A DNA stretch of 64,000 nucleotides from Squalus acanthias (lineage: Eukaryota), in the NCBI GenBank assembly GCA_030390025.1, contig CM059448.1:25854001-25918000 (forward strand). Direction: 5' to 3'. Below the pieces are notes generated by a model, which saw nothing but the letters and a program-made list of their open reading frames with translations, had not been told where the DNA came from and made no database searches. Positions 293 to 60,650 of the stretch are shown here, piece after piece (position 1 is the stretch's first letter; every line of letters begins with the position of its first letter). Position numbers and translations under genes: made by a program.

Positions 293-1580
293 AGCAGCAA
301 GAGCTTTTTAAAAAAAAAACTTATTGTGCTGTGCAAGATCAGCAGTCATGAAGGTGTGATCACTGATTAAATCATCACTGCACTGACTGTTTATACACAA
401 GGCCTTGTGTAACACTTTACCTTTCTGACCCTGCTCCAGTAACTGATGTGGCTGCTTTGAAGCTCAGGTTCACTGTGAATATTCAGGAATCCAGTTTGCC
501 CACCTATTCCGAGGCTGATTTATTTGGTACTTGCCTTTCAAAATGACACATTGGCTGTGATAGAATGTTTTTCCTGGAGCCTTGGCTAAAGTACTTTCCA
601 CAAAACACCAGAGGTGGAGTCAAAATTAATCAACGTTGGAGAAATTGTCGCTCATTGATTTATCACAGTTTAGTTGTAACTTAAAATCCCACACTGTTTC
701 CAACATTTATCACATCTCTATTTCATTCTGATTGTAGCTGGCAGCACCCTAAGCGTCAGTAGCCAGAGAAAACAAAATCCTAGCAGCAAACGCAGTTTCA
801 GCTCTCTAGGGATTATCTTAATGAATGTTCTTATGTATGAGGTTAGTTGTAGAGTGCATTGATTTACTACACTCCTCAGAAGCTCAAGTCTTTGTATCCT
901 GAAAGCAAACACTTGGGGCGACCTTTTTGTTAAAAAAAAAAGTTTCCCTACACTTGTCTCTTTATACCCCCTGACATGAGTCATTCCGCATTACAGTGCT
1001 TCCTTCAGTTGGGGGGGATGGTTCATGTGGGCGGTGAATTACGCCATGTCTGTACCAATGCCACCACATGATTGGCTAACAGTGGGTACACTTGCAGTGG
1101 ATTAGATAAGTCAGTGTTACCCTCGCCCTCCCACACCGACAGAGAACTTGCTCCCAGAAGGATGGGAAACGCTCTGTGGTGACTATGACTCAAACCGGCA
1201 ACCATTTTTTATTAAGGCGCCAAGGGCTTGGTGAAAGGGACAAGATTACATTGTGCAAAATACCATCAAGGCACTCTACTGCTTTTGCAATCAGTTTGCC
1301 ATCTCCTTTCTCGTTTAATTTTTTAAAAGACTCCACTTGGTTCACTTTTCCATTGCAGAATTATGAAAGTATTCCACCTAGTGCAACAAATATCCCTTGT
1401 TACTGCTGGGACCTTTGCTACTAGAAATTGATGGAAAAAAATGAAGTCCCTCTTCTCTTTCCTTCTCTTCCTCACTCCCCCAAACTCATTTGAGGGAAGA
1501 CACCCAGCCTCAGGTAACACAACAGACAATAGTTGTCATGAATGACTTGTGGAAATAAGTGGTGGGCAGTATAGAATCAT

Positions 1581-1936
1581 AGAATGTATACTTGAATTAT
1601 AATTTGGGCTAGGAATGGAGTTTAGTGTAACAGTCGGTTCGCCAGGAGAAATCTTTTGATTAAATTACAACAGTGACTACACTTCAAAATTGTCTGTGAA
1701 ACGCTTTGGGGCGTCCTGAGATCGTGAAAGGCGCTATATAAATGCAAGTTCGTTCTTCTTCTATTAAAAAGAAATAAAATCCAGTCAGCACTTTTAATCA
1801 CAACTATTCTTTTCCTGTTGACTTGGCTTCCCCTCCCCTGGAAATTTCTGATACTTTCACGGCTTTTCTGTACCCACATGAAAGACTAAATGCATCATAG
1901 TATGGGAAGAAAGAAATGGTTTGTTTTTTGATAAAT
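1581..1936 (+). repeat. Dispersed duplicate (copy 1) of 46791-47126, containing a DeuSINE/L2 3' tail fragment
   Basis: Collinear match from AGAATGTATACTTGAATTAT to GTATGGGAAGAAAGAAATGG...TAAAT. The SINE tail sits at the same internal position in both copies. Confidence 0.93.
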
Positions 1937-2822
1937 AGAATCATTGAATAGTACAGCACAGAAGGAGGCCATGCAGCCCAACGAGTCCGTGCCGGCTCTT
2001 TCAAAGAGCAATGCAGTTAGACCCACTCCCCCGTTATTTCCCCATATCCCTGCAATTTTTTCTCCTTCAAGTTTTGACCAATTCCCTTTTGGAGGCTACA
2101 ATTGAATCTGTATCCACCACCCTATCAGGCAGTGAATTCCAAATCCTAACCACTCGCTGCGTAAAAAGGTTTTTCCTCATGTCACTTCTCGTTCTTTTGT
2201 CAATCACCTTAAATCTGTACCCTCTCTTTATCGAACCTTCAGCCATTGGAAACAGTTTCTCTTTATTTACTCTATCGAATCCTTCATGATTTAAAACACC
2301 TCTATCTAATCTCCTCTTCGCCTTCTCTGCTCTAAGGAGAACAACCCCAGCTCCTCCAGTCTATCCACACAACTGTAATCCCTCATCCCTGGAACCATTC
2401 TAGTGAATCTCTTCTGTACCCTCTCCAAAGCCTTCACGTCCTTCCTAAAGTGTGGTGCCCAGAATTGGACACAATACTCCAGCTGGGGCCGAACTAGTGT
2501 TTTATGTAGGTTTAGCATAACTTCCTGGCTTTTGTACTTTATGCCTCTATATGCTTTATTAACCTTCCCTGTCACCTTCAAGAGAGACCCCAGGTCTCTC
2601 TGTTCTTACACCCCCTTTAAAATTGTACCATTTAGTTTGTATTGTCGCTCCTCATTCTTCCTATCAAAATGTATCACCTCCCACTTTTCGGCGTTGAATT
2701 TCATCTGCCATGTGACTGCCCATTCCACCAGCCCGTCTATGTCCTCTTGAAGTCTATTAGTATTTTCCTCACTGTTTACTACACTTTCAAGTTTTGTGTC
2801 ATCTGCAAATTTAGAAATTGTA
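1935..2822 (-). mobile_element. CR1 LINE, 5'-truncated 3' fragment
   Basis: ORF 2306..2581 gives LVRPQLEYCVQFWAPHFRKDVKALERVQKRFTRM (CR1 ORF2 C-terminus). The 3' UTR and ATAGAATC-type terminal repeat lie at 1935-1950. Confidence 0.92.
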
Positions 2823-2828
2823 CTACAG

Positions 2829-3235
2829 AAAAATAAAGAACTTGCATTTAAATAGCATGTTTTACATTCTCAGGACATCCCATCCTTCAGAGCCAATGAA
2901 TTACTTTTGAAGTGTTTTCGCTGTGGTTTTAGCAAACACAGCAGCCAGTTGGCACACTGCAAGGTCCGACAAATAGCGATAAGACGAATGACCCATTAAT
3001 CTATTTGGGTGCATTTGGTTGGGGGAAGAATGCTGGCCAGGACATCAGGAGAAGTCCCTACTCTTCTTTTGAAAAAGTGCCATCAGATCTTTTATGTTCT
3101 CCTGCACATACCAAATGGAACCTCAGTTTAACATCTCCTCCGAAAGATGGCACTTTCAACAATACAGCACTCCTTCAGTACTGCATTGCAATGCCAGCCT
3201 AGATTTAAGTGCTCAGGCTTTGAGTGGGACTTAAT
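2829..3235 (-). mobile_element. DeuSINE (SacSINE1-like), diverged
   Basis: Reverse complement of the element at 47684: tail CTTGCATTTAAATAGC and Deu domain GGCCAGGACATCAGGAGAA...GATCTTTTATGT. Confidence 0.8.
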
Positions 3236-12563: not shown

Positions 12564-13397
12564 GTGAGTAATTGAAATTGTTTATAATTCTTCATATGTG
12601 CTTGGAAGATACTAAATTACCTGTGAGCAGTGAGAACTTTTACTTAAGCAAACATATGTACCACCACTTTCTAACTTTAACTCACTTTATACGCGGGTTA
12701 ATTGTAATTGAATGCATGAATTACAACAGTAGGGGCAGTCTGAATTGACTTGCAGTCCATTACACCCAGAGATGATGGTATCTGATATGAATGTATACAA
12801 CACGAATGTGAGGAAAAATGAATGTAATTTCAAATTGAAATAAAGTTTAGATGATAACTTGATAGAAACAAATTTAGTTATAGATGACGCTTTGTTATCC
12901 AAAGTCAAAAATTCAAATTTGGGCCTTCCAGTTTAATGAAACTGTAAGCTTGATAGGTGACACATCAAATGATATGTGAGCAACTTTACTCCCCCAATTT
13001 TGCCTGCTCTTCTCCTGCCTAATGGGGTATGGCTTCAAGAGGCCAGTCTACATATGTTGCTTATAGGCTGCCTGCTGACAGTCATCAGTGGAAGACATTA
13101 CAACCGAGCCTGATCCGAACATCCACACACTTTCCAGAGGTATCACTGGATAGCAATCAGAAGTGGGGAATCTGGCTGAGATGGCTAAATTGACAGACGC
13201 TGTTAATTTGAACTTCAGATCCTCCTAAATCTCCAATTGGTTATCATGCCTTTCAGTCTATGTAGACATGGAAACATGACTTACAAGACACTTCAATCGT
13301 GGCAACAACTCCCCTTGAAATGCAACATTGTACCTGTGATTTAATTACTGATTCAAAGATGTTGCACAATTTTTAAGTACATGATTCACAGTTAAAT

Positions 13398-13503
13398 TAC
13401 ATTACAGCAGTGACTATACTTCAAAAGTACTTCATTGGCTGTACAGCGCTTTAGGACGTCCTGAGGTCGTGAAAGGCACTATATAAATGCAAGTTTTTCT
13501 TTC
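13398..13503 (+). mobile_element. DeuSINE/L2 3' tail fragment
   Basis: ACATTACAGCAGTGACTATACTTCAAAAGTACTTCATTGGCTGT...GCACTATATAAATGCAAG matches the tail of 47684-48157. Confidence 0.85.
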
Positions 13504-30266: not shown

Positions 30267-32760
30267 CATAGATACATAGAAGAGTACAGCACAGTACAGG
30301 CCCTTCGGCCCTCGATGTTGTGCCGAGCATTGTCCGAGACCAAGATCAAGCTATCACACTCCCTATCACTCTGGTGTGCTCCATGTGCTTATCCAATAAC
30401 CGCTTGAAAGTTCCTAAAGTGTCCGACTCCACTATCACAGCAGGCAGTCCATTCCACACCCCAACCACTCTCTGAGTAAAGAATCTACCTCGGACATCCC
30501 TTCTATATCTCCCCCCATGCACCTTATAGTTATGCCCCCTTGTAACCCCGAGGAAATAGTCTCTGAACATCCACTCTATCTATCCCCCTCATCATCTTAT
30601 AAACCTCTATTAAGTCGCCTCTCATCCTTCTCCGCTCTAAAGAGAAAAGCCCCAACTCCCTCAATCTTTCCTCATAAGACCTCCCCCCCAAACCAGGCAG
30701 CATCCTGGTAAATCTCCTTTGCACTCTTTCCAATGCTTCCACGTCCTTCCTATAGTGAGGTGACCAGAACTGCACACAATATTCCAAATGTGGTCTCACC
30801 AAGGTCCTGTACAGTTGCAGCATAACCTCACGGTTCTTAAACTCAAACCCTCTGTTAATAAACGCCAACACACCATAGGCCTTCTTTACTGCTCTATCCA
30901 CTTGAGTGGCAACCTTCAGAGATCTGTGGATATGAACCCCCAGATCCCTCTGCTCCTCCACGTTCCTCAGAACCCTGCCGTTGACCCTGTAATCCTTATT
31001 CAAATTTGCCCTACCAAAATGAATCACCTCGCACTTATCAGGGTTAAATTCCATCTGCCATTTTTCGGCCCAGCTCTGCATCCTATCAATGTCTCTTTGC
31101 AGCCTACAACTGCCCTCCACCTCATCCACTACTCCACCAATCTTGGTGTCATCAGCAAATTTACTAATCCACCCTTCAGTCCCCTCCTCCAAGTCATTGA
31201 TAAAAATCACAAACAGCAGAGGACCCAGCACCGACCCCTGTGGCACACCGCTGGTAACTGGTCTCCAGTCCGAAAATGTTCCATCCACCACCACCCTCTG
31301 CCTTCTATGAGATAGCCAGTTACTTATCCAATCGGCCAAATTTCCCTCTATCCCACAACTCCTTACTTTCTTCATGAGACGACCATGGGGAACCTTATCA
31401 AACGCCTTACTAAAATCCATGTATACGACATCAACTGCTCTACCTTCATCTACACACTTAGTTACCTCCTCAAAGAATTCAATCAAATTTGTTAGGCAAG
31501 ACTTACCCTTCACGAATCCGTGTTGACTATCCCTGATTAAGTTGCCCCTTTCCAAATGGTCATAAATCCTATCCCTCAGGACCTTTTCCATTATCTTACC
31601 AACCACCGAAGTAAGACTAACCGGCCTATAATTACCAGGGTCATTCCTATTTCCTTTCTTGAAGAGAGGAACAACATTCGCCACTCTCCAGTCCTCTGGC
31701 ACCATCCCCGTGGACAGTGAGGACCCAAAGATCAAAGCCAGAGGCTCTGCAATCTCCTCCCTTGCCTCCCAAAGAATCCTAGGATATATCCCATCTGGCC
31801 CAGGGGACTTATCGACCCTCAGGTTCTTCAAAATTGCTAAAACATCTTCCCTCAGAACATCTACCACCTCCAGCCTATCCACCTTTATCACACTCTCATC
31901 CTCAAGAACATGGCCCCTCTCCTCGGTGAACACTGACGAAAAGTATTCATTCATCACCTCTCCTATCTCTGCTGACTCCATGCACAAGTTCCCACTACTG
32001 TCCTTGACCGGCCCTACCCTCACCCTGGTCATTCTTTTATTTCTCACATAAGAGTAAAAAGCCTTGGGGTTTTTCTTGATCCGACCCGCCAAGGACTTCT
32101 CATGCCCCCTCCTAGCTCTCCTAAGCTCTTTTTTTAGCTCATTCCTTGCTACCTTGTACCCCTCAATCGACCCAACTGAACCTTGTTTTCTCATCCTTAC
32201 ATACGCTTCCTTTTTCCTCTTGACTAGACATTTAACCTTTTTTGTGAACCATGGTTCTCTCACTCGGCCATTTCCTCCCTGCCTGACAGGGACATACCTA
32301 TCAAGGACACGCAGTAATTGCTCCATGAAAAAGCTCCACTTTTCGTTTGTGCCTTTCCCTGATAGTTTCTGTTCCCATCTTATACTCCCTAATTCTTGGC
32401 TAATCGCATCATAATTACCCCTCCCCCAATTATAAACCCTGCCCTGCCGTATGGCCCTATCCCTCTCCATTGCAATAGTGAAAGTTACCGAATTGTGGTC
32501 ACTATCTCCAAAGTGCTCTCCCACATACAAATCAAACACTTGGCCCGGTTCATTACCCAGTACCAAATCCAACGTGGCCCCACCTCTTGTCGGCCTATCC
32601 ACATATTGTGTCAGGAAACCCTCCTGCACACACTGTGCAAAAACTATCCCATCCGAACTGTTTGACCTATAAAGGTTCCAATCAATATTTGGAAAGTTGA
32701 AGTCACCCATGACAACTATTCTGTGACCTCCACACCTATTCATAATCTGCTTTGCAATTT
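30267..32760 (-). mobile_element. Young 5'-truncated CR1 LINE with long open ORF2 (C-terminal endonuclease plus full RT)
   Basis: 775-aa ORF 30530..32857 with APE motifs VMGDFNFPNIDW, LDLVL, GDSDHN and RT motifs [33 protein letters not shown]. The first ~33 aa come from flanking DNA. One frameshift near 30555; tail CATAGATACATAGA. Confidence 0.97.
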
Positions 32761-33388
32761 CATTCAAATTAGAGGGAGGATCCAGTTGGACAGAGCCCTT
32801 TGAGTTTTTGAAGATTGCATTTAGATTTGGCTTAAGTGTGTATGCATGGAACATCATTCAAATGGAACTGTGTTCCCATAAAAATATATTAATTCCCACA
32901 AAAAGAAAATGTGCCAAGGTTTCCATGTGAATAGCTTCATTGGCAGGGTGTGTGGCGAGCTTGGACAGATACAGAGCCTTTTTCAAGATTGCGATATTTT
33001 CTTGTGTTTGCTCATGTCAGCACACACTGCCATTAGCAACAAGAGGGAAATGTGGTGAAAGACCATCAAGTGTTCGCCCATGTTATAGTAGCATGCAGAT
33101 AAATAGGCCAGTTTGGAGCAGACTTGCTTGAAAGAAATTGGCTTTCTCTCAGTGATCTTTGGAGGTGTTGAATTAGAACCTGAGCCTTCAGGGTGGGTGG
33201 GCGCCCTTTTCTTGTTTCAACATTCTTATGAGCAAAGAATTAAATCTGTTTGGTTTTAAGATGCTGGTGAAACCAAATCCTGTTCCAAAGCTACCGTTCT
33301 AACCTAATTTTAAATAAAGTACGCAGTATATAACAGAAGAGGTGCAAAATGCTTTGCTTGTTTTTATTGTGCACTTTATCATTTGTAA

Positions 33389-33577
<189 letters not shown>

Positions 33578-40489: not shown

Positions 40490-41012
40490 GGCCCTGATAT
40501 TTACGGGACGACAGGGTGGGGGGCTGTAATGGCCAGCAAACCCAAAAATGAGGACCTCATTTTAAATGGTTTTTCTCCATTTCCCGGACGGCAGCCAGCC
40601 AGATTGAGAGGTTGGCAGCTGCCGTGTGGGAAGGCCTGCGCTGGTAGGCTGCAGCCGGGGAGCGGAGAGGAGGGAAGGAGAGAGAGGGAGAGATTGGAAA
40701 GCTCAGGGGGGAGATCCTAAACCACAAGCAGTGCTGGAAAGGCACTTATCTGCGGGATCGGGCTGTTCTCGCCTCCCTTCAGCTGCCAGGTTTCCCAAGC
40801 CCTGGGAAACCCAGCCCGCAGCCTGATTAAAATATTTAAATTACAGAGCCACCTCTAAAGAGCAGGTTAGTCGCCCGCCCTCCCCAACCCACCTCCGTTA
40901 AAACTGGAAGTAGGCGCGTTGGAGGGCGATTGGGGTCTGGTTTCTAATTTTTTTAATTCTAACCTCCTCCCTGCCCCTCTCCCACACGTCCTGGGGGGTT
41001 AATATCCGCCCC
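40490..41012. mobile_element. GC-rich MITE-like element
   Basis: Imperfect inverted termini GGCCCTGATATT / AATATCCGCCCC enclosing a CpG-rich block. Confidence 0.5.
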
Positions 41013-41450: not shown

Positions 41451-41533
41451 CAAGCAGTGCTGGAAAGGCACTTATCCGTGAGATCTGGCCGTTCTCGCCT
41501 CCCTTCAGCTGCCAGATTTCCCAAGCCCTGGGA
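41451..41533 (+). repeat. 83-bp direct copy of 40725-40807
   Basis: CAAGCAGTGCTGGAAAGGCACTTAT...TTTCCCAAGCCCTGGGA; 6 substitutions and no indels by manual comparison. Confidence 0.92.
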
Positions 41534-44028: not shown

Positions 44029-46264
44029 TGAATGTTGTATTCGCACTCCCGAATGAGTGCTGCATTAAATGTTCATCTGTTCACCACAATTGCTGTTGGG
44101 GAGAGAGTTATAAGGGCCAACCTGATCAAGAGGTGATGGCATAAACCATGCAAGTGGTGCATTGGCGAGGGCGTTACAAAGACCAACCTAATCGAGAGGT
44201 TTAGATGATATAAACCATGCAAGTCAAGCAACTTACAAAACCAACTGAACTCTAATTGAGTTTCTTACAGTTGTTTCACTGCCTGGTACCTTGGTTTATG
44301 TCATTTCTAATCTGTATTAAATGTCCTTGTTATAATGTTCAGCAGTTCTTTGCGGGGTTTACCACTTTCCCTAGAGTGTTTCAAAGCCTCATTCCAGTGA
44401 TGAGTGGCATTCAGTGGGGACAGTATTCCAGGTTATAATTTGTAGCACGTTATAGGGAGGTTCCAAACACGCTGTGTGAGACTTGACACATGATCGGCTT
44501 TTGATTTAAGTTTTTCACGCAGCTCCCTGAACATTTTGTCGCTCACTCAAATTATTCCATCAAATTCTTCATCATTTCACTTCCACATTCTGCAACGGAA
44601 CATCTCGGGGATCAAATCCAGCCCAGACTGATGGCTTGAGAGTCTCTTTTTGCCTGCTGACTGCAGGGGACCAGAGTGTTTGGGCAATCTCGATCCAGTC
44701 CGTAGTGGCCACGAGCTTACAGCAGGAACTGCCCCATATTGGCACGAAACTGATTTCTCACTCGAGAGAGGTTCGAGAATTATTAATGTGGGAATTCACA
44801 CTGTTGGAGTAAGGTGTCTTCCTAGGTTCAGGCACATCGTAGGATAGAGTAGAGGGAGCTTTATTCTGCATTTTACCATGCTTTGGCGTGTTTGATAGTG
44901 CCTAACATGGGAAAAGTTCTCTTCCACACCACTGATGCTGATACACAGGGACATAGAGATTGCTAGATGAAAGAAGCCAACATGCCACCTAGTCCACCTT
45001 CTACCATCCTGGTAGTCACATGATACAACGATAATGGAGTTGTTGACTAATCATAGCAATCAATCTCTATCAATTAGTCTACAAGAGACCCAGACATGAT
45101 ACGAGAAAAACCCCAGTGGTGGAGAGCTTTGGGAACCATAGGTCCTAACAAAAGAATTTTTTTTCTTAAAAAGTGCAAGTTCTAGAAATCTCAGTCCACT
45201 TGTAATCTTGATGTGGAATTTTTCTTTGTAACTGGTTTGTCAGGACTTTGCTGCAATGAGAAACTAATAATGAATTTCCAGAGGCCTCAACAGTTGCAGT
45301 GGAGTTTGGGCTGGGACCGAGGACCTTGTCTGCTGTAACTGGAACGTTGCGGCTGTAACAGGGTCTGACTGCAGACATCCAACGGTTCATAAACACCCAG
45401 GGCTGGTTCTCCTCAGCACTCATCTGTCTTCAGTTAGTTCTAATGGGATGCAGCAATTTAAGAGGGCCAAGTACCAACTGGGATTGTGCCCCTGGATGTT
45501 ACACAAGGTTTCCCAGTTGACTATCATTAGAACACGCACCAGGCTAAGTCCTTAGGCTGAAGGGCCTGGTTTACTGGTTACTGGTCTGTCGGGAAAGATT
45601 TTGTTGGAGACGGTCCAGTTGCGTGCACGATATTATCAGCACTGAAGGTGCCAAAGGTTGGAAAATGATTCAGACTCTCAGCAAATTGCAGAGGTTTGAA
45701 GTACAGGGGGTCTCCAGCCTGCCCATTGTAACTTTGGCAGACGAGCTGCGGAAACAGTGGAGAAACGGTATGAATACAGTTTGCGCCATTTTTCTAATGT
45801 TTTCGTATCACTTCCACCAATTTTAGAGTGGAGGAGTGGGAGACCCCCCCCCCCGCAGAGAGAGAGACCCCCTCAGAAACAGACCCCCTGCAGTCTGCCT
45901 CTGACAATTCAAAGTGTTCTGTGTATAAAAAGAATTATTAAATAAGTTGAATTAAGCAATGTAAGTAGCAGAGTAAAGTGGGCATTTATTGCTTAAAAAT
46001 TGAATTACTGGATAGTAGGAATTAAGCCACTTTGAATTAAGAGTAGACTGAAAGCATGAGTCAGCACTCATTTGAATTGTGTATATTTGTTTGTCAAATA
46101 AGTCGGCATTCTTTCAATTGTGCGTGTCGATATATAAACCAGGATTCATTCAAATTGCACCTGCCACTCTTCCCAGCGACGATGACTGTGAAGATGGGGA
46201 AGGCTTTTAAAAGGGAAACTGAATGAGATGGAGTGAAACATGTTTTTGTTTTTGCCTCTTGCAG

Positions 46265-46406
46265 CAACAGATGCAGTCCGATCCACACAAGCTTGACTTT
46301 GGCCTGAAACCAGAGTTCCTGAGCAGGCCACCAGGCCCCAGCATGTTTGGAGCTATCCACCACCCCCATGAGCTGGCTCGCCCAGCAACCCTCTTCTCCA
46401 CCGCTG
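46265..46406 (+). CDS. AUTS2: AUTS2 exon 15-equivalent (142 nt, phase 0-1)
   Basis: cctcttgcag| [48 protein letters not shown]|gtaagg. Confidence 0.97.
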
Positions 46407-46552
46407 GTAAGGAATAGCATTTAATGGTGAGGTTTCCCCCTCGGGAGTCATAGAATGCCAGCAATCTACTCCATCTCTGTGCCCAGCCAGTCAAACACAT
46501 GAAGTTTCCCCGGGACGCCAACATTTTCTGTTGTGAGCTGTACAAATAGCAG

Positions 46553-46571
46553 TGTCCACTAGATGGCAGTG
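46553..46571 (+). promoter_or_regulatory. CTCF core motif
   Basis: TGTCCACTAGATGGCAGTG fits the CCACYAGRKGGCR consensus, in non-repeat DNA ~150 bp after exon 15. Confidence 0.6.
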
Positions 46572-46790
46572 TTCACATTCAGCATTGAATACATTGCCTT
46601 GTGTTCCCAACAACATTCACCTGTAACACAATCTGCTTCTGTGCAGAGAAAAGCAACAAGCCAGATTTAGTCAGTTCTTGCAGGTAAGAAGAGACCATGC
46701 TTACAAGCATGCCATATTTTTTTTTAATAAATTGTTATGTTTAAAGCTATTCACTTCCAGCATCGTCCATGTTGATAGACTTGAATGGCC

Positions 46791-47126
46791 AGAATGTATA
46801 CTTGAATTATAAATTGGGCTAGGAATGGAGTTCAGTATAACAGTCGATTCGTCAGGAGAAATCTTTATTACGTTACAACGGTGACTACACTTCAAAAGTA
46901 CTTCATTAGTTGTAAAGCACGTTGGGACGTCCTGAGGTCGTGAAAGGCGCTATATAAATGCAAATTCTTTCTTCTATTGAAAAGGAATAGAATCCAGTCC
47001 GCACTTTTAATCCTGACTTTTCTCCCCTGGAATTTTCTGGTACCTTCACGGCTTTTCTGTGCACACATGAAAGACAAAATGCACCACAGTATGGGAAGAA
47101 AGAAATGGGTTAATCTTTTGGTAAAT
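46791..47126 (+). repeat. Dispersed duplicate (copy 2) of 1581-1936, containing a DeuSINE/L2 tail
   Basis: Collinear with 1581-1936; the SINE tail here (46872-46975) is more complete. Confidence 0.93.
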
Positions 47127-47683
47127 CATGCAGGAAAGGAATCCAATAGTCCCTGGGTTTTGTTGGAGCGAAATCATGCAGCTCAAGCAAAATGATTTTA
47201 CTGTCATGCTTTGTACGCACGTCCTCCTGGACAGCGTCACTCACGGGACAAGTGCATCCGTGACCGTACAGAACCAAAAGCAATCCCAGTCCTTGTGTGT
47301 GGCTACGGTTCCCTTCCAATACATCTGCTTTGTTTATTAAATATCTTGCGTCTTCGCACGCTGCCATTATAATTTTTCCATTATTAATTTCTAAGTCTGC
47401 CTTTATAATGGAAACTTGTCACACTGTAATTTCACCCTCCGCACAGCGGAAACTCTGCGGCCCCACCATTGGTGGGAGGATGTAACTTCGGTAAGATGTG
47501 TTTATCCAGGCAGTGTCATTATAGGCAGTGTTTATTATAACTGTAGACAGAGGAATTTCTAATAGAAACACAGGTAATAATAAGGACAGAATGCATGACC
47601 AAAATGGGGACATTATCACATACTGCGTGCCCTGATTTAATTATACCCCACTCTCTACTACTGTACTTCCTCACTCCAGTGAG

Positions 47684-48157
47684 GTGTCAGCTGTGGCTCA
47701 GTGGGCAGCACCCTCGCCTCTGAGCCAGAAGGTTGTGGGTTCAAGTCCCATTCCAGAGACTTGAGCACAAAAATCCAGGCTGACACGCCAGTGCAGTGCT
47801 GAGGGAGCGCTGCACTGTCGGAGGTGCCATCTTTTGGATGAGACGTTAAACCGAGGCCCCGTCTGCCTCCTCAGGTGGACGTAAAAGATCCTGCGGCACT
47901 ATTTCGAAGAAGAGCAGGGGAGTTCTCCCCGGTGTCCTGGCCAATATTTATCCCTCAACCAACATCACTAAAAACCAGATTATCTGGTCATTATCACATT
48001 GCTGTTTGTGGGAGTTTGCTGTGTGCAAATTGGCTGCCGCGTTTCCCACATTACAACAGTGACTACACTTCAAAACAAAAAGTACTTCTTCGGCTGTAAA
48101 GCGCTTTGAGACGTCCGGTGGTCGTGAAAGGCGCTATATAAATGCAAGTCTTTCTTT
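47684..48157 (+). mobile_element. Full-length DeuSINE (SacSINE1-like): tRNA-derived head, Deu domain, L2-type tail
   Basis: A box TGGCTCAGTGGG, B box GGTTCAAGTCC (47738), Deu core GATGAGACGTTAAACCGAGG...GGACGTAAAAGATCC...GAAGAGCAGGGGAGTTCTCCCCGGTGTCCTGGCCAA, tail GGCGCTATATAAATGCAAGTCTTTCTTT. Confidence 0.9.
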
Positions 48158-48769
48158 GTTTCTCCCTCTGCACAACACCACAGGAGATATACATTACATA
48201 TAGTCAGTGTATGTATAGAACTATATATATGTATACATGTATATAAAAAAAGGCCACGACATTCTCATGGTAATATATCTGTGAGTGGCACTGTGAGGGT
48301 CACATTATGTGATTCGTTAAAGGACACGAAGCTCAGCTAACATTACTGTGACGACTCCACTATACTTACCCTGTATTCTCCCTTCCTTGAACTTAGGAAA
48401 ATAAGTTCACGTGCTTGCCACTGTGACGAAAATGCCAATCTCCGCAGTTCTCCAATAAAGTTCCCAAGCTCTTTAATGCAGCATGAATTCCCACTGGCAA
48501 TGGGGAGCATTTGGATTGCACCACATTCATCCTTCAGGATGACTCGGGATCCGAATGTAGACTAAATACAGAAACATCCCTGATGACAAACTGGACAAAT
48601 AACTGCTCAAGTCCTCCACTGAATCCAGCCCATGGAAACGATACGCCCCCATTGTGCTAACATTGCATGTCGCCCCCCACCACCCCATTGAGCTCCCTTT
48701 CTCAATGGGATCCCACAGACTAGCATTTCCAATTTCCCGCCCTGGTAACATTTAGGCCCATGTCTCGTT

Positions 48770-53276: not shown

Positions 53277-53760
53277 CAACAACAACAGGTTAAATTTATA
53301 TAGTGCCTTAAACATAATAAAACGTGCCAAGGTGCTTCACAGGAGTGTTGTCAAAAAACACAAAAATTGACACCGAGCCACATAAGGAGATGTTAGGGCA
53401 GATGACCAAAAGCTTGGTCGAAGAGGTAGGTTTTAAGGAGCGCCTTAAAGGAGGAAAGAGAAGTAGATAGGCGGAGAGGTTTAGGGAGGGAATTCCAGAG
53501 CTTAGGACCTAGGCAACTGAAGGCACGGCCGCCAATGGTGGAGCATTTAAAATCGGGGATGTTCAAAAGTCCAGAATAGATGGAACGCAGAGGTCCAGGG
53601 GGATTATAGGCCTGGAGGAGATTACAGAGATAAGGAGGGGCGAGGCCATGGAGGGATTTGAAAACAAGGATTTAAAATCGAGGCGTTGCTTAACTGGGAG
53701 CCAATGTAGGTCAGTCAGCAAGCACAGGGGAGATGGGTGAACGATACTTGGTGCGAGTTT
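53277..53760 (-). mobile_element. L2-clade LINE 3' fragment with (GTT)n tail
   Basis: Reverse complement of the 39110-39612 family; LTDLHWLPVKQRLDFK. Confidence 0.9.
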
Positions 53761-54054
53761 ACACGGGTGATCTTCTACCTCAACTCCACTTTCCTGCACT
53801 ATCCCCATATCCCTTGATTCCTTAATATCCAAAAATCTATCATCTCTGTCTTGAATATACTCAATTGCTGCGCCTCTACAGCCCTCTGGGGTAGAGAATT
53901 CCAAAGTTTCACCACCCTCTGAGTGAAGAAATTTTTCCTCATCTCAGTCCTAAATGCCAACCCCTTATTCTGAGACTGTGACCCCCAGTTCCAGCCTCTC
54001 CAGTCAGGGGAATCATACTCCCAGCATCTACCCTGTCAGCATCTACCCTGTCTA

Positions 54055-55320
54055 TTGGAATTTTTTGAGGGAGTAACTGGTAAAATAGATGGGGGAGAGC
54101 CAGTAGATGTGGTGTACCTGGACTTCCAAAAGGCCTTCGATAAGGTCCCACATAAAAGATTAGCAGGGAAAATTGAAGCTCATGGGATAAAGGGGAAAGT
54201 ATTGACGTGGATAGAGAACTGGCTGTCAGATAGAAAGCAGAGAGTTGGAATAAACGGCTCATTTTCTGAATGGCAGGCAGTAACAAGTGGGGTACCGCAG
54301 GGATCTGTCCTGGGTCCCCAGCTGTTCACAATTTACATTAATGACCTGGATCAGGGAGTCGGATGCAGCATTTCCAAATTTGCAGACGACACTAAACTAG
54401 GAGGGGGGGGTGGGCTCAGAGGAGGAGACCAGGAAGCTCCAGAGCGATTTGGACAGACTGGGTGATTGGGCGGATAAATGGCAGATGCACTATAATGTGG
54501 ACAAGTGCGAAGTTATCCACCTTGGGTGTAGGAACGGGAGGGCAAATTATTATTTAAATGGCAATAAATTGGGAGAGGGGGAAGTACAGAGAGACCTGGG
54601 TGTTCTTGTACACCAGTCACTGAAGGCGAGCATGCAGGTGCAACAGGCGGTCAAGAAGGCAAACGGTATGCTGGCCTTCATAGCAAAAGGGTTGGAATAC
54701 AGGAACAGGGATACCTTGCTGCAGCTGTACAGGGCACTGGTGAGACCACACCTCGAGTACTGTGTACAGTTTTGGTCGCCTCATCTGAGGAAAGATGTTC
54801 TTGCCATGGAGGGGGTGCAGCGGCGATTCACCAGGCTGATACCAGGAATGGCGGGATTGACCTATGAGGAGAGACTATGTAGTTTAGGGATGTACACACT
54901 GGAGTTTAGAAGATTGAGAGGGGACCTCATAGAAGTGTATAAAATTCTGACAGGTCTAGACAGACTAGATGCAGAAGGAATGTTTCCCTTGGCGGGTGAG
55001 AACAGAACTAGAGGACATAATTTAAGGATAAGGGCTAAACCATTTAGGACAGAAATGAGGGGGAATTTCTTCACTCAGAGGGTGGTGAACCTGTGGAACT
55101 CATTGCCACAGAGGGCAGTGTACGCCAGCTCATTAAATATATTTAAGAGGGAATTAGATATATTTCTACAGGCAAAAGGGGTTAAGGGTTACGGAGAGAA
55201 GGCGGGGACGGGATACTGAATTGGAGGATCAGCCATGATCTCATTAAATGGCGGAGCAGGCTCGAAGGGCCGGATGGCCTACTCCTGCTCCTATCTTCTA
55301 TGTATCTATGTATCTATGTA
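54055..55320 (+). mobile_element. Young 5'-truncated CR1 LINE nested in an older CR1
   Basis: ORFs 54055..54465 and 54410..55219 form the RT and C-terminus, broken only at a G-run (~54403-54410). Tail TCTATGTATCTATGTATCTATGTA. Confidence 0.96.
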
Positions 55321-55462
55321 AGCCCTGCAAGAATTTCATATGTTTGAATGAGATCATCTTTCATTCTTCTAAATTCTAAGGAATATAGGCCTAGTCTCCT
55401 CAATCTGTCCTCATAGGAAAATCCCCCCCCCATCCCAGGAATCAGTCTGGTGAACCTTCGTT

Positions 55463-55600
55463 AAGAGCATAAGAAATAGGAGCAGGAGTAGGCCATACGG
55501 CCCTTCGAGCCTGCTCTGCCATTCAATAAGACCATGATCTTTGACCTCAACTCCACTTTTTGCCTGAACCCCATATCCCTTGATTCCCCCAGAGTCAAAA
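55463..55600 (-). mobile_element. Short CR1 3' UTR insertion nested in an older CR1
   Basis: AAGAGCATAAGAAATAGGAGCAGGAGTAGGCCAT..., flanked by TT on both sides. Confidence 0.85.
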
Positions 55601-55938
55601 TTGCACTCCCTCTGAGGCAAGTATATCCTTCCTTGGGTAAGGAGACCAAGAATGTACACAGTACTCCAGGTGTAGTCTCACCAAGGTCCTATATAATTGC
55701 AGTAAGACTTCTTCACACTCATTCGCTTCTTTACTCTTAACAACAGCAACTGCACTTTAAATGTAATCTATTAGTTGTAAACAGAGCAAAGGATGGCAAC
55801 GGATGGCCAAGGAGCTCCCTAGGGAGCTGCCAGCACAGGAGCCATCTTGTACTCAATCACATCCCGTCACAGGCCCAGGATAACGGCCGCCATCTTGATT
55901 CAGTTGTGAAGTGGTTTGGGACGTCCTCAGGAAATAAG

Positions 55939-58251: not shown

Positions 58252-58947
58252 GGGGGAGAAATTGAGTATCGCCCTGTTTGGGGCGCAAACTTTTGAAAGC
58301 TGGAAAAATTAGCGCCAGCCTCTAATGATTCTCAGCTTTCTCTAAATTCAGTGTTAGCGCTTCAGGAAGGAAGTGGAGCGCTAAATCAAGTCCTCCACTT
58401 CCTTCCTGGAGCGCTGAAGGACGCAGGCGGGGCGGTCGTGGTGCAGCGCTGCCGAGATCCGAGGCTCCTTCCCTCCCTTAAAGGGAAGGGCTATCTCTGC
58501 AGGCTCTGCAGTTAGCTGGGCCCCGATCCAGCCCGATCAGCCCAGCAGAGTACCGGGCTGATCGATCGCAGCTGAAGCAAAATGGAAAAAATTGAAATAA
58601 TGCATTGCAACAATTTTTATACTTACTGCGCCAACATCCCCTTTAACTTGCGCCCCCGAAGCGCCCGGCCTCCCGAACAGCGCCTCCTGCAGCTGTCGGT
58701 GTTGTCACCCGGCGATGCTGCAGGGGGCGGAACCGAAGTTCGGGTCCGGGCCGATGCGCAGGACAATGACGTCACGTTCTCCAGGCGCAGGAGATCATGG
58801 CGTAATGTGATACCACCAGCGCAAACCTCTAGGCCAATTTAGCGGGAGTCATTCATTTCACCGCGCCCGGTCGCTAAGTTGTTAGCGCCCTGTTATCGCC
58901 CCCTGGAGGCACTAACGGGAGGTGCTAAGGAGGCCAATTTCTAGCCC
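58252..58947. mobile_element. GC-rich MITE, probable PIF/Harbinger-type
   Basis: TIRs GGGGGAGAAATTG / CAATTTCTAGCCC with AAA on both flanks (possible 3-bp TSD). Related to 8642-9302. Confidence 0.7.
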
Positions 58948-59929: not shown

Positions 59930-60650
59930 TAGATTACATCTGTGTGTGTTACACTTATCTGAATTACATCTGTGTGGATCACACCTGTGTATATTACAAT
60001 CTAGCTGTGTCACGTCTCTGTGTAATACCATTCTGTATGATCCTTGTCCATTACACCTGTCTGTGTGTGTCACACCTGTGTATATTACCCCATCTGTGTC
60101 ACACCTGTGTATATTACCCCATCTGTGTCACACCTGTGTATATTACCCCATCTGTGTCACACCTGTGTATATTACCCCATCTGTGTCACACCTGTGTATA
60201 TTACCCCATCTCTGTCACACCTGTGTATATCTTACCTCTGTATCATACCTGTGTATAGGATACCTATCTGTTTTGCACCTGTGCATATTACACATATCTG
60301 TTGCACTTATGTTTATTACTCCTATGTGTATTACACCTGTGTATATTACACCTCTCTCTGGCATACCTGTGTGTATTTGTATTACGCTTGTGTGTATCAC
60401 ACCTGTGTACATTACACCTCTATTATGCTTGTAACATACTTGCGTATACTGGTGTCAAACCTGTGTGCATCATACCTGTGTTTATTACACCTATCTTTAT
60501 CAACCGGTTTACTGTATCAGGGTATCGCACCTATCTGTATTACAGTATCCCTTCTATATGTTTCATAGTATCACAGCTACATGTAGCAGAACTGTTTTAC
60601 ACCAATCTGTATGGTAGTATTACACTTAGTTGTATCGCACCTGTGTGTAT
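59930..60650. repeat. 29-bp minisatellite with degenerate flanks
   Basis: Unit GTCACACCTGTGTATATTACCCCATCTGT; five near-perfect copies at 60069, 60098, 60127, 60156 and 60185. Confidence 0.95.

Follow-up and report, generated by a model that had tools for sequence, protein, structure and literature searches.

A duplicated AUTS2 intron segment between CR1 tail repeats in Squalus acanthias: a candidate case of local DNA copying during an aberrant CR1 integration

Introduction

The closest described counterparts of the structure reported here are L1 templated insertions, 22 cases of which, typically shorter than 250 bp and templated within 15 bp of the insertion site, are set out in one recent report (bioRxiv 10.1101/2024.08.27.596794), with three further cases near the site in another (PMC11702581). 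The L1 protein ORF2p is described as copying DNA and RNA about equally, extending primers of 5 nt and jumping between templates in vitro (PMC10830420), and early template switching has been proposed for tailed non-coding RNA retrocopies (PMC2912911). In zebrafish, inserts of the L2 clade elements ZfL2-1 and ZfL2-2 are reported to carry extra nucleotides at their 5' ends that are templated from flanking DNA (PMC4760211, PMC4245944).

CR1-group elements have the standing of LINEs that copy strictly from their own tail. Should CR1 also capture host DNA at its 3' end from tens of kb away, this would add to local duplication in vertebrates where L1 is not dominant, and structures resembling 3' transductions would require a second explanation. 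Here we describe a segment of an AUTS2 intron present twice in a 64,000-nucleotide stretch of the Squalus acanthias genome (GenBank assembly GCA_030390025.1, contig CM059448.1, positions 25,854,001 to 25,918,000, forward strand; hereafter the window). Both the CR1 body and the SINE piece embedded in the segment are ordinary high-copy shark repeats, and it is their arrangement around a duplicated host segment that is unusual.

Results

Two diverged copies of one AUTS2 intron segment

AUTS2 runs on the + strand across the window, with a Pfam Auts2 match (E 2e-18) at 46223-46414 and exon-like segments at ~11970, 13713, 17790, 21609, 33430-33525, 37238, 42460, 43933, 46265-46406 and 59640. We take the exon at 46265-46406 to be exon 15 in the human AUTS2 numbering, which would place the downstream copy of the segment in intron 15 and the upstream copy in intron 6 or earlier. 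The order of exons found is consistent with the label "intron 15" given to the downstream site in a preliminary description of this locus, the numbering itself being that of human AUTS2. The window also contains a 60-bp palindrome at 58356-58415 and a 29-bp tandem array at 59940-60500. The features concerned in the duplication are as follows.

1581-1936, + strand: recipient copy of the AUTS2 intron segment, read as the derived one, upstream of the AUTS2 exon at ~11970
1660-1762, + strand: 3' fragment of a tRNA-type SINE within the upstream copy, with an 8-bp deletion relative to other SINE copies
46265-46406, + strand: AUTS2 exon just upstream of the donor (Pfam Auts2, E 2e-18)
46791-47126, + strand: probable donor, or native, copy in the intron, with no tail array, no CR1 and no target-site duplication
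46867-46972, + strand: the same SINE 3' fragment within the donor copy, with no derived change in common with the upstream copy

Self-BLAST of the window and global alignment show that 1581-1936 and 46791-47126 are same-strand matches (E 9.2e-90) with identical letters at 291 of 327 aligned positions, bearing out the collinearity originally claimed for them. The two copies measure 356 and 336 bp, respectively, and lie 45,210 bases apart. A window search with the flanks outside the donor (46421-46790 and 47125-47680) found nothing similar next to the upstream copy, which gives the copied unit sharp limits. On the same observation, that the outer flanks share nothing, we rejected an old and larger duplication into which two CR1 elements had later inserted. 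The non-SINE parts of the segment match just these two places within the window, the next best hit having an E-value of 0.11 (nhmmer --max), in agreement with the unique look previously attributed to the sequence around the SINE.

The copies differ at 36 of 327 aligned columns (11.0%, 95% CI 7.8-14.9%), distributed over the 5' flank (5/77), the SINE piece (14/100) and the 3' flank (17/150). These substitutions comprise 27 transitions and 9 transversions, and several indels also separate the copies. Divergence, transition excess and indels together indicate neutral decay rather than an assembly duplicate, and an assembly artefact was rejected on the divergence and the indels. Three further candidates were set aside: an excised circle, as there is no circular permutation and the donor ends share only 3 nt in the sequence; independent SINE insertions at two sites, as the flanks of both copies align; and a non-coding RNA retrocopy, as the segment matches no Rfam family. 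Rfam searches of the window returned no match at the gathering score and two chance hits (E 3.1 and 4.1).

As a proxy for copy number, a reading frame across the donor left flank, the 5' unique part and the SINE was compared with 1.84 billion proteins, yielding one unrelated match (27% identity) and no SINE-derived match, so that the positive control was empty too. Exact-match scans of bacterial and archaeal genomes (GTDB) for shark contamination likewise returned 0 matches, both with the unique motif and with the SINE as positive control. A second, shorter same-strand duplicate is present at 40725-40807 and 41451-41533 (83 bp, 93% identity, 726 bases apart); it has sharp ends and no adjoining CR1 tail, and may belong to an unrecognised repeat. 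The right flank of the donor contains an imperfect inverted repeat at 47355-47594.

CR1 tail repeats on both sides of the upstream copy

Read along the CR1 element, the upstream site consists of a CR1 body, a tail, the host segment and a second tail, and only the upstream copy lies between tails.

1571-1585, - strand: outer CR1 tail repeat, a perfect 15-mer of about two 8-bp units, without a CR1 body
1935-1949, - strand: inner CR1 tail repeat with one mismatch, the true CR1 3' end
1935-2822, - strand: 5'-truncated dead CR1 LINE of ~890 bp, comprising a 3' UTR with a hairpin and the C-terminal part of ORF2
2835-3235, - strand: older SINE copy (E 7.6e-52), a bystander at the target site, its tail ~10 bases from the CR1 5' junction

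Tail arrays were identified by scoring the CR1 8-bp repeat over 15 bases, with 30 Markov simulations as the null model. Arrays with at most 0, 1 and 2 mismatches numbered 2, 3 and 6 in the window, versus 0.0, 0.07 and 0.9 expected. A CR1 3' end follows directly on five of these six, leaving 1571-1585 as the sole orphan. Each of the two tails around the segment has about two units, intact tails elsewhere in the window having two to three, and tails cover ~0.24% of the window (lengths read by eye). The last five bases of the outer tail are common to the donor start and the first two bases of the inner tail to the donor end, so that the segment boundaries fall within 0-2 bases of tail repeats on both sides of the upstream copy.

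Judged by reverse transcriptase (RT) similarity and tail type, the element at 1935-2822 is a CR1 clade LINE. It carries the end of the RT open reading frame (tblastn, 56% over 194 aa against the 775-aa CR1 ORF2 elsewhere in the window), with an RVT_1 match (E 0.0016) below the gathering score. Its ORF2 is broken by stops, a frameshift and three in-frame deletions. The 3' hairpin (z -2.33, 4 of 200 shuffles) is followed by the 8-bp tandem repeat tail. Protein searches matched 306 of 862 candidates at E<=1e-20, the named ones being bird, turtle and shark RT proteins, and the best match was a Heptranchias perlo protein with 91% identity over 65 aa. We take the shark CR1 to be HER1-like. The name HER1 is listed in PMC3747384.

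Relative to named shark CR1 proteins, the three in-frame deletions (~4, 4 and 7 residues) fall within ~30 codons, at 2540-2600; they could have arisen later, or by slippage while the same jump-prone reverse transcription was under way. The protein matches also included CR1-type RTs under Klebsiella, Carnobacterium and Proteus names, on contigs of 1.6-3 kb, which are probably vertebrate DNA contamination of those assemblies. Elsewhere in the window, a minus-strand CR1 at 30268-32857 carries a 775-residue open ORF2 stretch that covers the RT (Pfam E 4e-37) and part of the endonuclease (Pfam E 1e-8); since its ORF2 is still open, this is taken to be a young copy of another subfamily. Two tandem CR1 3' ends, both without a clear 8-bp tail, are found at 38016-37901 and 37877-37680. 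A dense LINE nest at 53278-55711 includes an L2-like 3' end and CR1 pieces in both orientations, and within it the CR1 3' end at 55462-55588 is inserted into an older CR1 fragment.

Junctions and donor ends

Two short motifs mark the ends of the donor.

46791-46795, + strand: AGAAT, left-junction microhomology with the tail
47123-47129, + strand: AAATCAT, a motif resembling the tail where the donor ends on the right

Taking blunt joining as the null, the 5-nt left overlap has a probability of 0.005, and the right junction, where tail and donor share AT alone (2 nt), a probability of 0.17. The first four bases of AAATCAT are present in the upstream copy and the CAT is absent there. A tail 6-mer so near a random junction would be expected with a probability of about 0.013, and the right overlap may once have measured 6 nt and have lost 3 bp later. 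The microhomology previously proposed for both donor ends thus holds on the left and was overstated on the right.

No target-site duplication of at least 4 nt was found at the junctions of either site. A 3-nt match between 1569-1571 and 2820-2822, noticed by eye, is not significant, and the other CR1 copies are likewise without demonstrated duplications. A perfect 10-bp direct repeat (1571-1580 and 1935-1944) surrounds the segment, which is simply the period of the tail.

The tail-like bases at both ends of the downstream copy would be accounted for if a master CR1 elsewhere had gained a 3' extension and founded a dispersed composite family, both window copies being daughters, of which the downstream one was cut short at the inner tail. 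Also in favor of such a family, CR1-group elements amount to 22-34% of elasmobranch genomes (PMC13343379). Two copies per 64 kb would, however, require thousands genome-wide, and no third copy of either flank occurs in the window. The downstream copy has five tail bases versus 12-24 at the other CR1 ends of the window and no target-site duplication, and it would need to have been truncated exactly at the inner tail. We regard a composite family as rather unlikely.

The downstream copy adjoins no CR1, as had been noted before: neither the CR1 piece nor a profile of ten CR1 3' ends matched anything at E<5 in 46401-48600, and the 3'-end profile was silent near 47126. This absence of a source element or remnant weighs against one of the two readings initially offered for the locus, a true 3' transduction, in which an active CR1 once stood at ~47126 on a since-lost allele and its read-through RNA was reinserted. 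After priming at the internal tail, the RNA would have slipped by 340 nt in the 3' direction, where AGAAT matches, and been copied back through flank, tail and body. The source allele must then have been lost and the daughter fixed 45 kb away, and random landing within 45 kb would have a chance of ~2-5e-5 in a genome that we take to be 2-5 Gb. In favor of a 3' transduction, the right junction would come free, since it looks like any CR1 3' junction formed where the target resembles the tail; the orientation suits read-through from a minus-strand element; and unique DNA separates the tail of the element from another tail, in the orientation of the element. Slippage on 3' repeats has moreover been reported for the eel LINE UnaL2 (PMC3747384). 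On the other side, CR1-clade LINEs count among the stringent ones, which recognise the 3' tail of their own RNA (PMC4176376), and the idea that the captured 3' end carries a decoy CR1 hairpin was rejected, the stem-loop z scores there being +0.65 and -0.32 versus -2.33 at the CR1 end. A true 3' transduction appears quite improbable.

Relative ages of the SINE piece, the duplication and the CR1

The SINE fragment in both copies is presumably SacSINE1-like. The label follows the description of SacSINE1 in PMC5499810 rather than a consensus comparison. Over 91 columns aligned with four other SINE copies of the window, five changes are derived in the upstream piece, seven in the downstream piece, one is ambiguous and none is shared. 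The absence of shared derived changes indicates that the duplication came soon after the SINE piece had inserted. Two of the other SINE copies, of similar age, differ from the majority at 6/97 and 9/97 columns, and two older ones at 23/95 (the bystander at 2835-3235) and 26/99. Another SINE copy, at 13396-13502, breaks off close to the point in the SINE where the duplicated piece does.

The divergence of the duplicates corresponds to 5.5% per lineage. Along the stretch covered by the Heptranchias perlo protein, which spans one of the three pieces of the CR1 open reading frame, 6 of 65 residues differ, two of the changes belonging to the S. acanthias element, two to its relative and two being ambiguous. 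The probability of at most four changes in the CR1 is 0.14 at a nucleotide divergence of 5.5%, 0.04 at 7% and 0.002 at 10%, and the point estimate for the age of the CR1 (~2-3%) lies below the 5.5% of the duplication. As a rough date from one relative and 65 residues, these values suggest that the CR1 is not much older than the duplication, and maybe slightly younger. Two further protein searches found no closer CR1 relative, their best matches showing 74% identity (162 matches) and 54% identity (2 matches). The other CR1 copies of the window differ from 1935-2822 by 15-21% in the 3' UTR and, as they may be of other subfamilies, were left out of the dating.

Since substitutions are symmetric (five versus seven) and neither copy interrupts a recognisable repeat, divergence gives no direction to the duplication. 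Both observations would also suit a native 1581-1936 lying between two independent CR1 ends, with 46791-47126 as an orphan retrocopy or patch. This reversal would require an independent bodyless tail exactly at one boundary, and none of the five other arrays is an orphan; it would further require a promoterless CR1 to be transcribed, truncated exactly at the inner tail and reinserted locally, and the downstream copy shows no target-site duplication. We consider it highly improbable.

A candidate aberrant CR1 integration

Of the two readings originally put forward, the template switch stands as the best one. In the form that we favor, with a rough probability of one half, the tail received a copy of local genomic DNA in the course of a single aberrant CR1 integration, either through a microhomology-guided template jump by the CR1 RT or by a repair polymerase. 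The structure, the junctions, a donor without CR1 and the roughly equal ages are the established part of this account. The CR1 ribonucleoprotein would have introduced a nick at 1570/1571 and begun with ~15 nt of tail cDNA, which would be + strand. The new 3' end, AGAAT, would then have paired with the minus strand at 46791, 45 kb away in the same gene, and been extended by ~336 nt on the local template, the enzyme being either the CR1 RT or a repair polymerase of the host. Synthesis would have returned to the CR1 RNA tail where the copied DNA resembles it (47125-47129), and ~890 nt of CR1 would have followed before 5' truncation and joining at ~2822. By an equivalent route, the donor site itself would have been nicked and primed, and the two intermediates resolved together.

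The first cDNA of a minus-strand CR1 is + strand from 1571 rightwards, so copying the donor needs a minus-strand template. With AUTS2 on the + strand, its pre-mRNA would thereby be excluded for a first-strand jump, a constraint of orientation that the preliminary description had missed, and the template would be genomic DNA or antisense RNA. AUTS2 pre-mRNA would be allowed only if priming took place from the right end, in second-strand synthesis or repair.

Several observations favor this aberrant integration. Both segment boundaries lie within 0-2 bases of tails that occupy a minute share of the window, and, with a CR1 that appears not to be older than the duplication, this upholds the CR1 involvement claimed at the outset. 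There are two tails of ordinary length, as if the tail had been copied twice, and the outer one is bodyless, the only such case among the six arrays. The left microhomology (P 0.005) and the tail-like 6-mer at the donor right end (P about 0.013) point in the same direction, and the changes in the CR1 would fit a divergence of 5.5% (P 0.14) and not one of 10% (P 0.002). A nearby donor would also be natural for a template reached through chromatin contact, and not for an RNA that had left the nucleus. Against the account, it concerns a single locus and requires two switches, from RNA to DNA and back; the right junction offers 2 nt (P 0.17), the 6-nt version requiring a later 3-bp deletion; the dating uses 65 residues and one relative; and there is no convincing target-site duplication. 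The size (336-356 bp), the distance (45 kb) and the 3' position also depart from the published short, near-site L1 cases and 5'-junction L2 cases.

By sequence alone, the same outcome would be expected from a repair patch made soon after insertion, a second point that the preliminary description had missed, since a host patch in the tail gives the same structure without a reverse transcriptase. Here the CR1 would have inserted with a tail of three to four units, and a later break in the tail would have been filled by host repair from the intron 45 kb away, by a microhomology-mediated route, by synthesis-dependent annealing or with an RNA-derived patch. Host enzymes alone would explain the locality, the microhomology, the donor without CR1 and the lack of a second target-site duplication; the 10-bp direct repeat (1571-1580 and 1935-1944) could reflect a small duplication formed where the break occurred; right-end priming would permit AUTS2 pre-mRNA as a template; and class 2 templated sequence insertions (PMC5110952) have the same features. 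A break independent of CR1 would, however, land in the tail ~0.24% of the time, and the tail before the break would have needed at least as many units as the longest one in the window (three). Because the CR1 appears not to be older than the duplication, the patch must also have come soon after insertion. We judge a repair patch unlikely.

A narrower form of the favored integration assigns all of the copying to the element itself: a CR1 RT of the stringent type would abandon its RNA tail once some two repeats had been copied, take a few hundred bases off a site in chromatin contact tens of kb away and return to its RNA. Structures of tail, unique DNA, tail and CR1 with nearby donors would then be a recurrent class in CR1-rich genomes. 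We regard this as a doubtful proposition.

Discussion

The locus preserves one old intronic fossil event, and no exon, known RNA or function was found in the copied segment. The product is probably neutral, a dead intronic insertion. If the RT-jump reading is true, CR1 would reshuffle intronic DNA within loci, and insertions of this kind would form a fossil record of germline chromatin contacts. The succession of tail, unique DNA, tail and CR1 is easily searched for genome-wide, so the question is cheaply testable. No report of 3' transduction by CR1 was found in the literature searched, which covered few subscription journals and makes for weak evidence, and the string "transduc" is absent from PMC13343379.

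Like an L1 partnered 3' transduction, the structure presents a body, a tail, unique DNA and a second tail; unlike one, it has no source element at the donor, no poly(A) and a donor within 45 kb, and the LINE involved is of the stringent type and shows microhomology where its outer tail is joined. It resembles class 2 templated sequence insertion polymorphisms (PMC5110952) and the templated insertions of cancer genomes (PMC7025897) in being a copy of a distant, intact donor with microhomology, no poly(A) and no clear target-site duplication. Those insertions have no described link to a retrotransposon tail, whereas here both junctions lie in CR1 tail repeats.

With the zebrafish ZfL2-1 and ZfL2-2 inserts, the locus has in common a CR1-group LINE and bases templated from host DNA through annealing, but those tracts are short, lie at the 5' junction and derive from the immediate flank, whereas the present one is long, lies at the 3' end and derives from a distant site. 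The likeness to L1 templated insertions is that a genomic segment foreign to the element was copied into a LINE insert and host DNA thereby duplicated, with a donor that is on the same chromosome, intact and without an adjoining element; a strand-transfer model would apply to both. Unlike those somatic or cultured human cell events, typically under 250 bp and at most 15 bp away, the CR1 case is fixed in the germline, lies inside the 3' tail, measures 336-356 bp and has its donor 45,210 bp away. Taken at the level of sequence, the structure would thus work like an L1 templated insertion while looking like a 3' transduction, for which the source element is missing. This single case is best described as a variant of the known LINE-linked templated duplications, differing from the published ones in position, size and distance.
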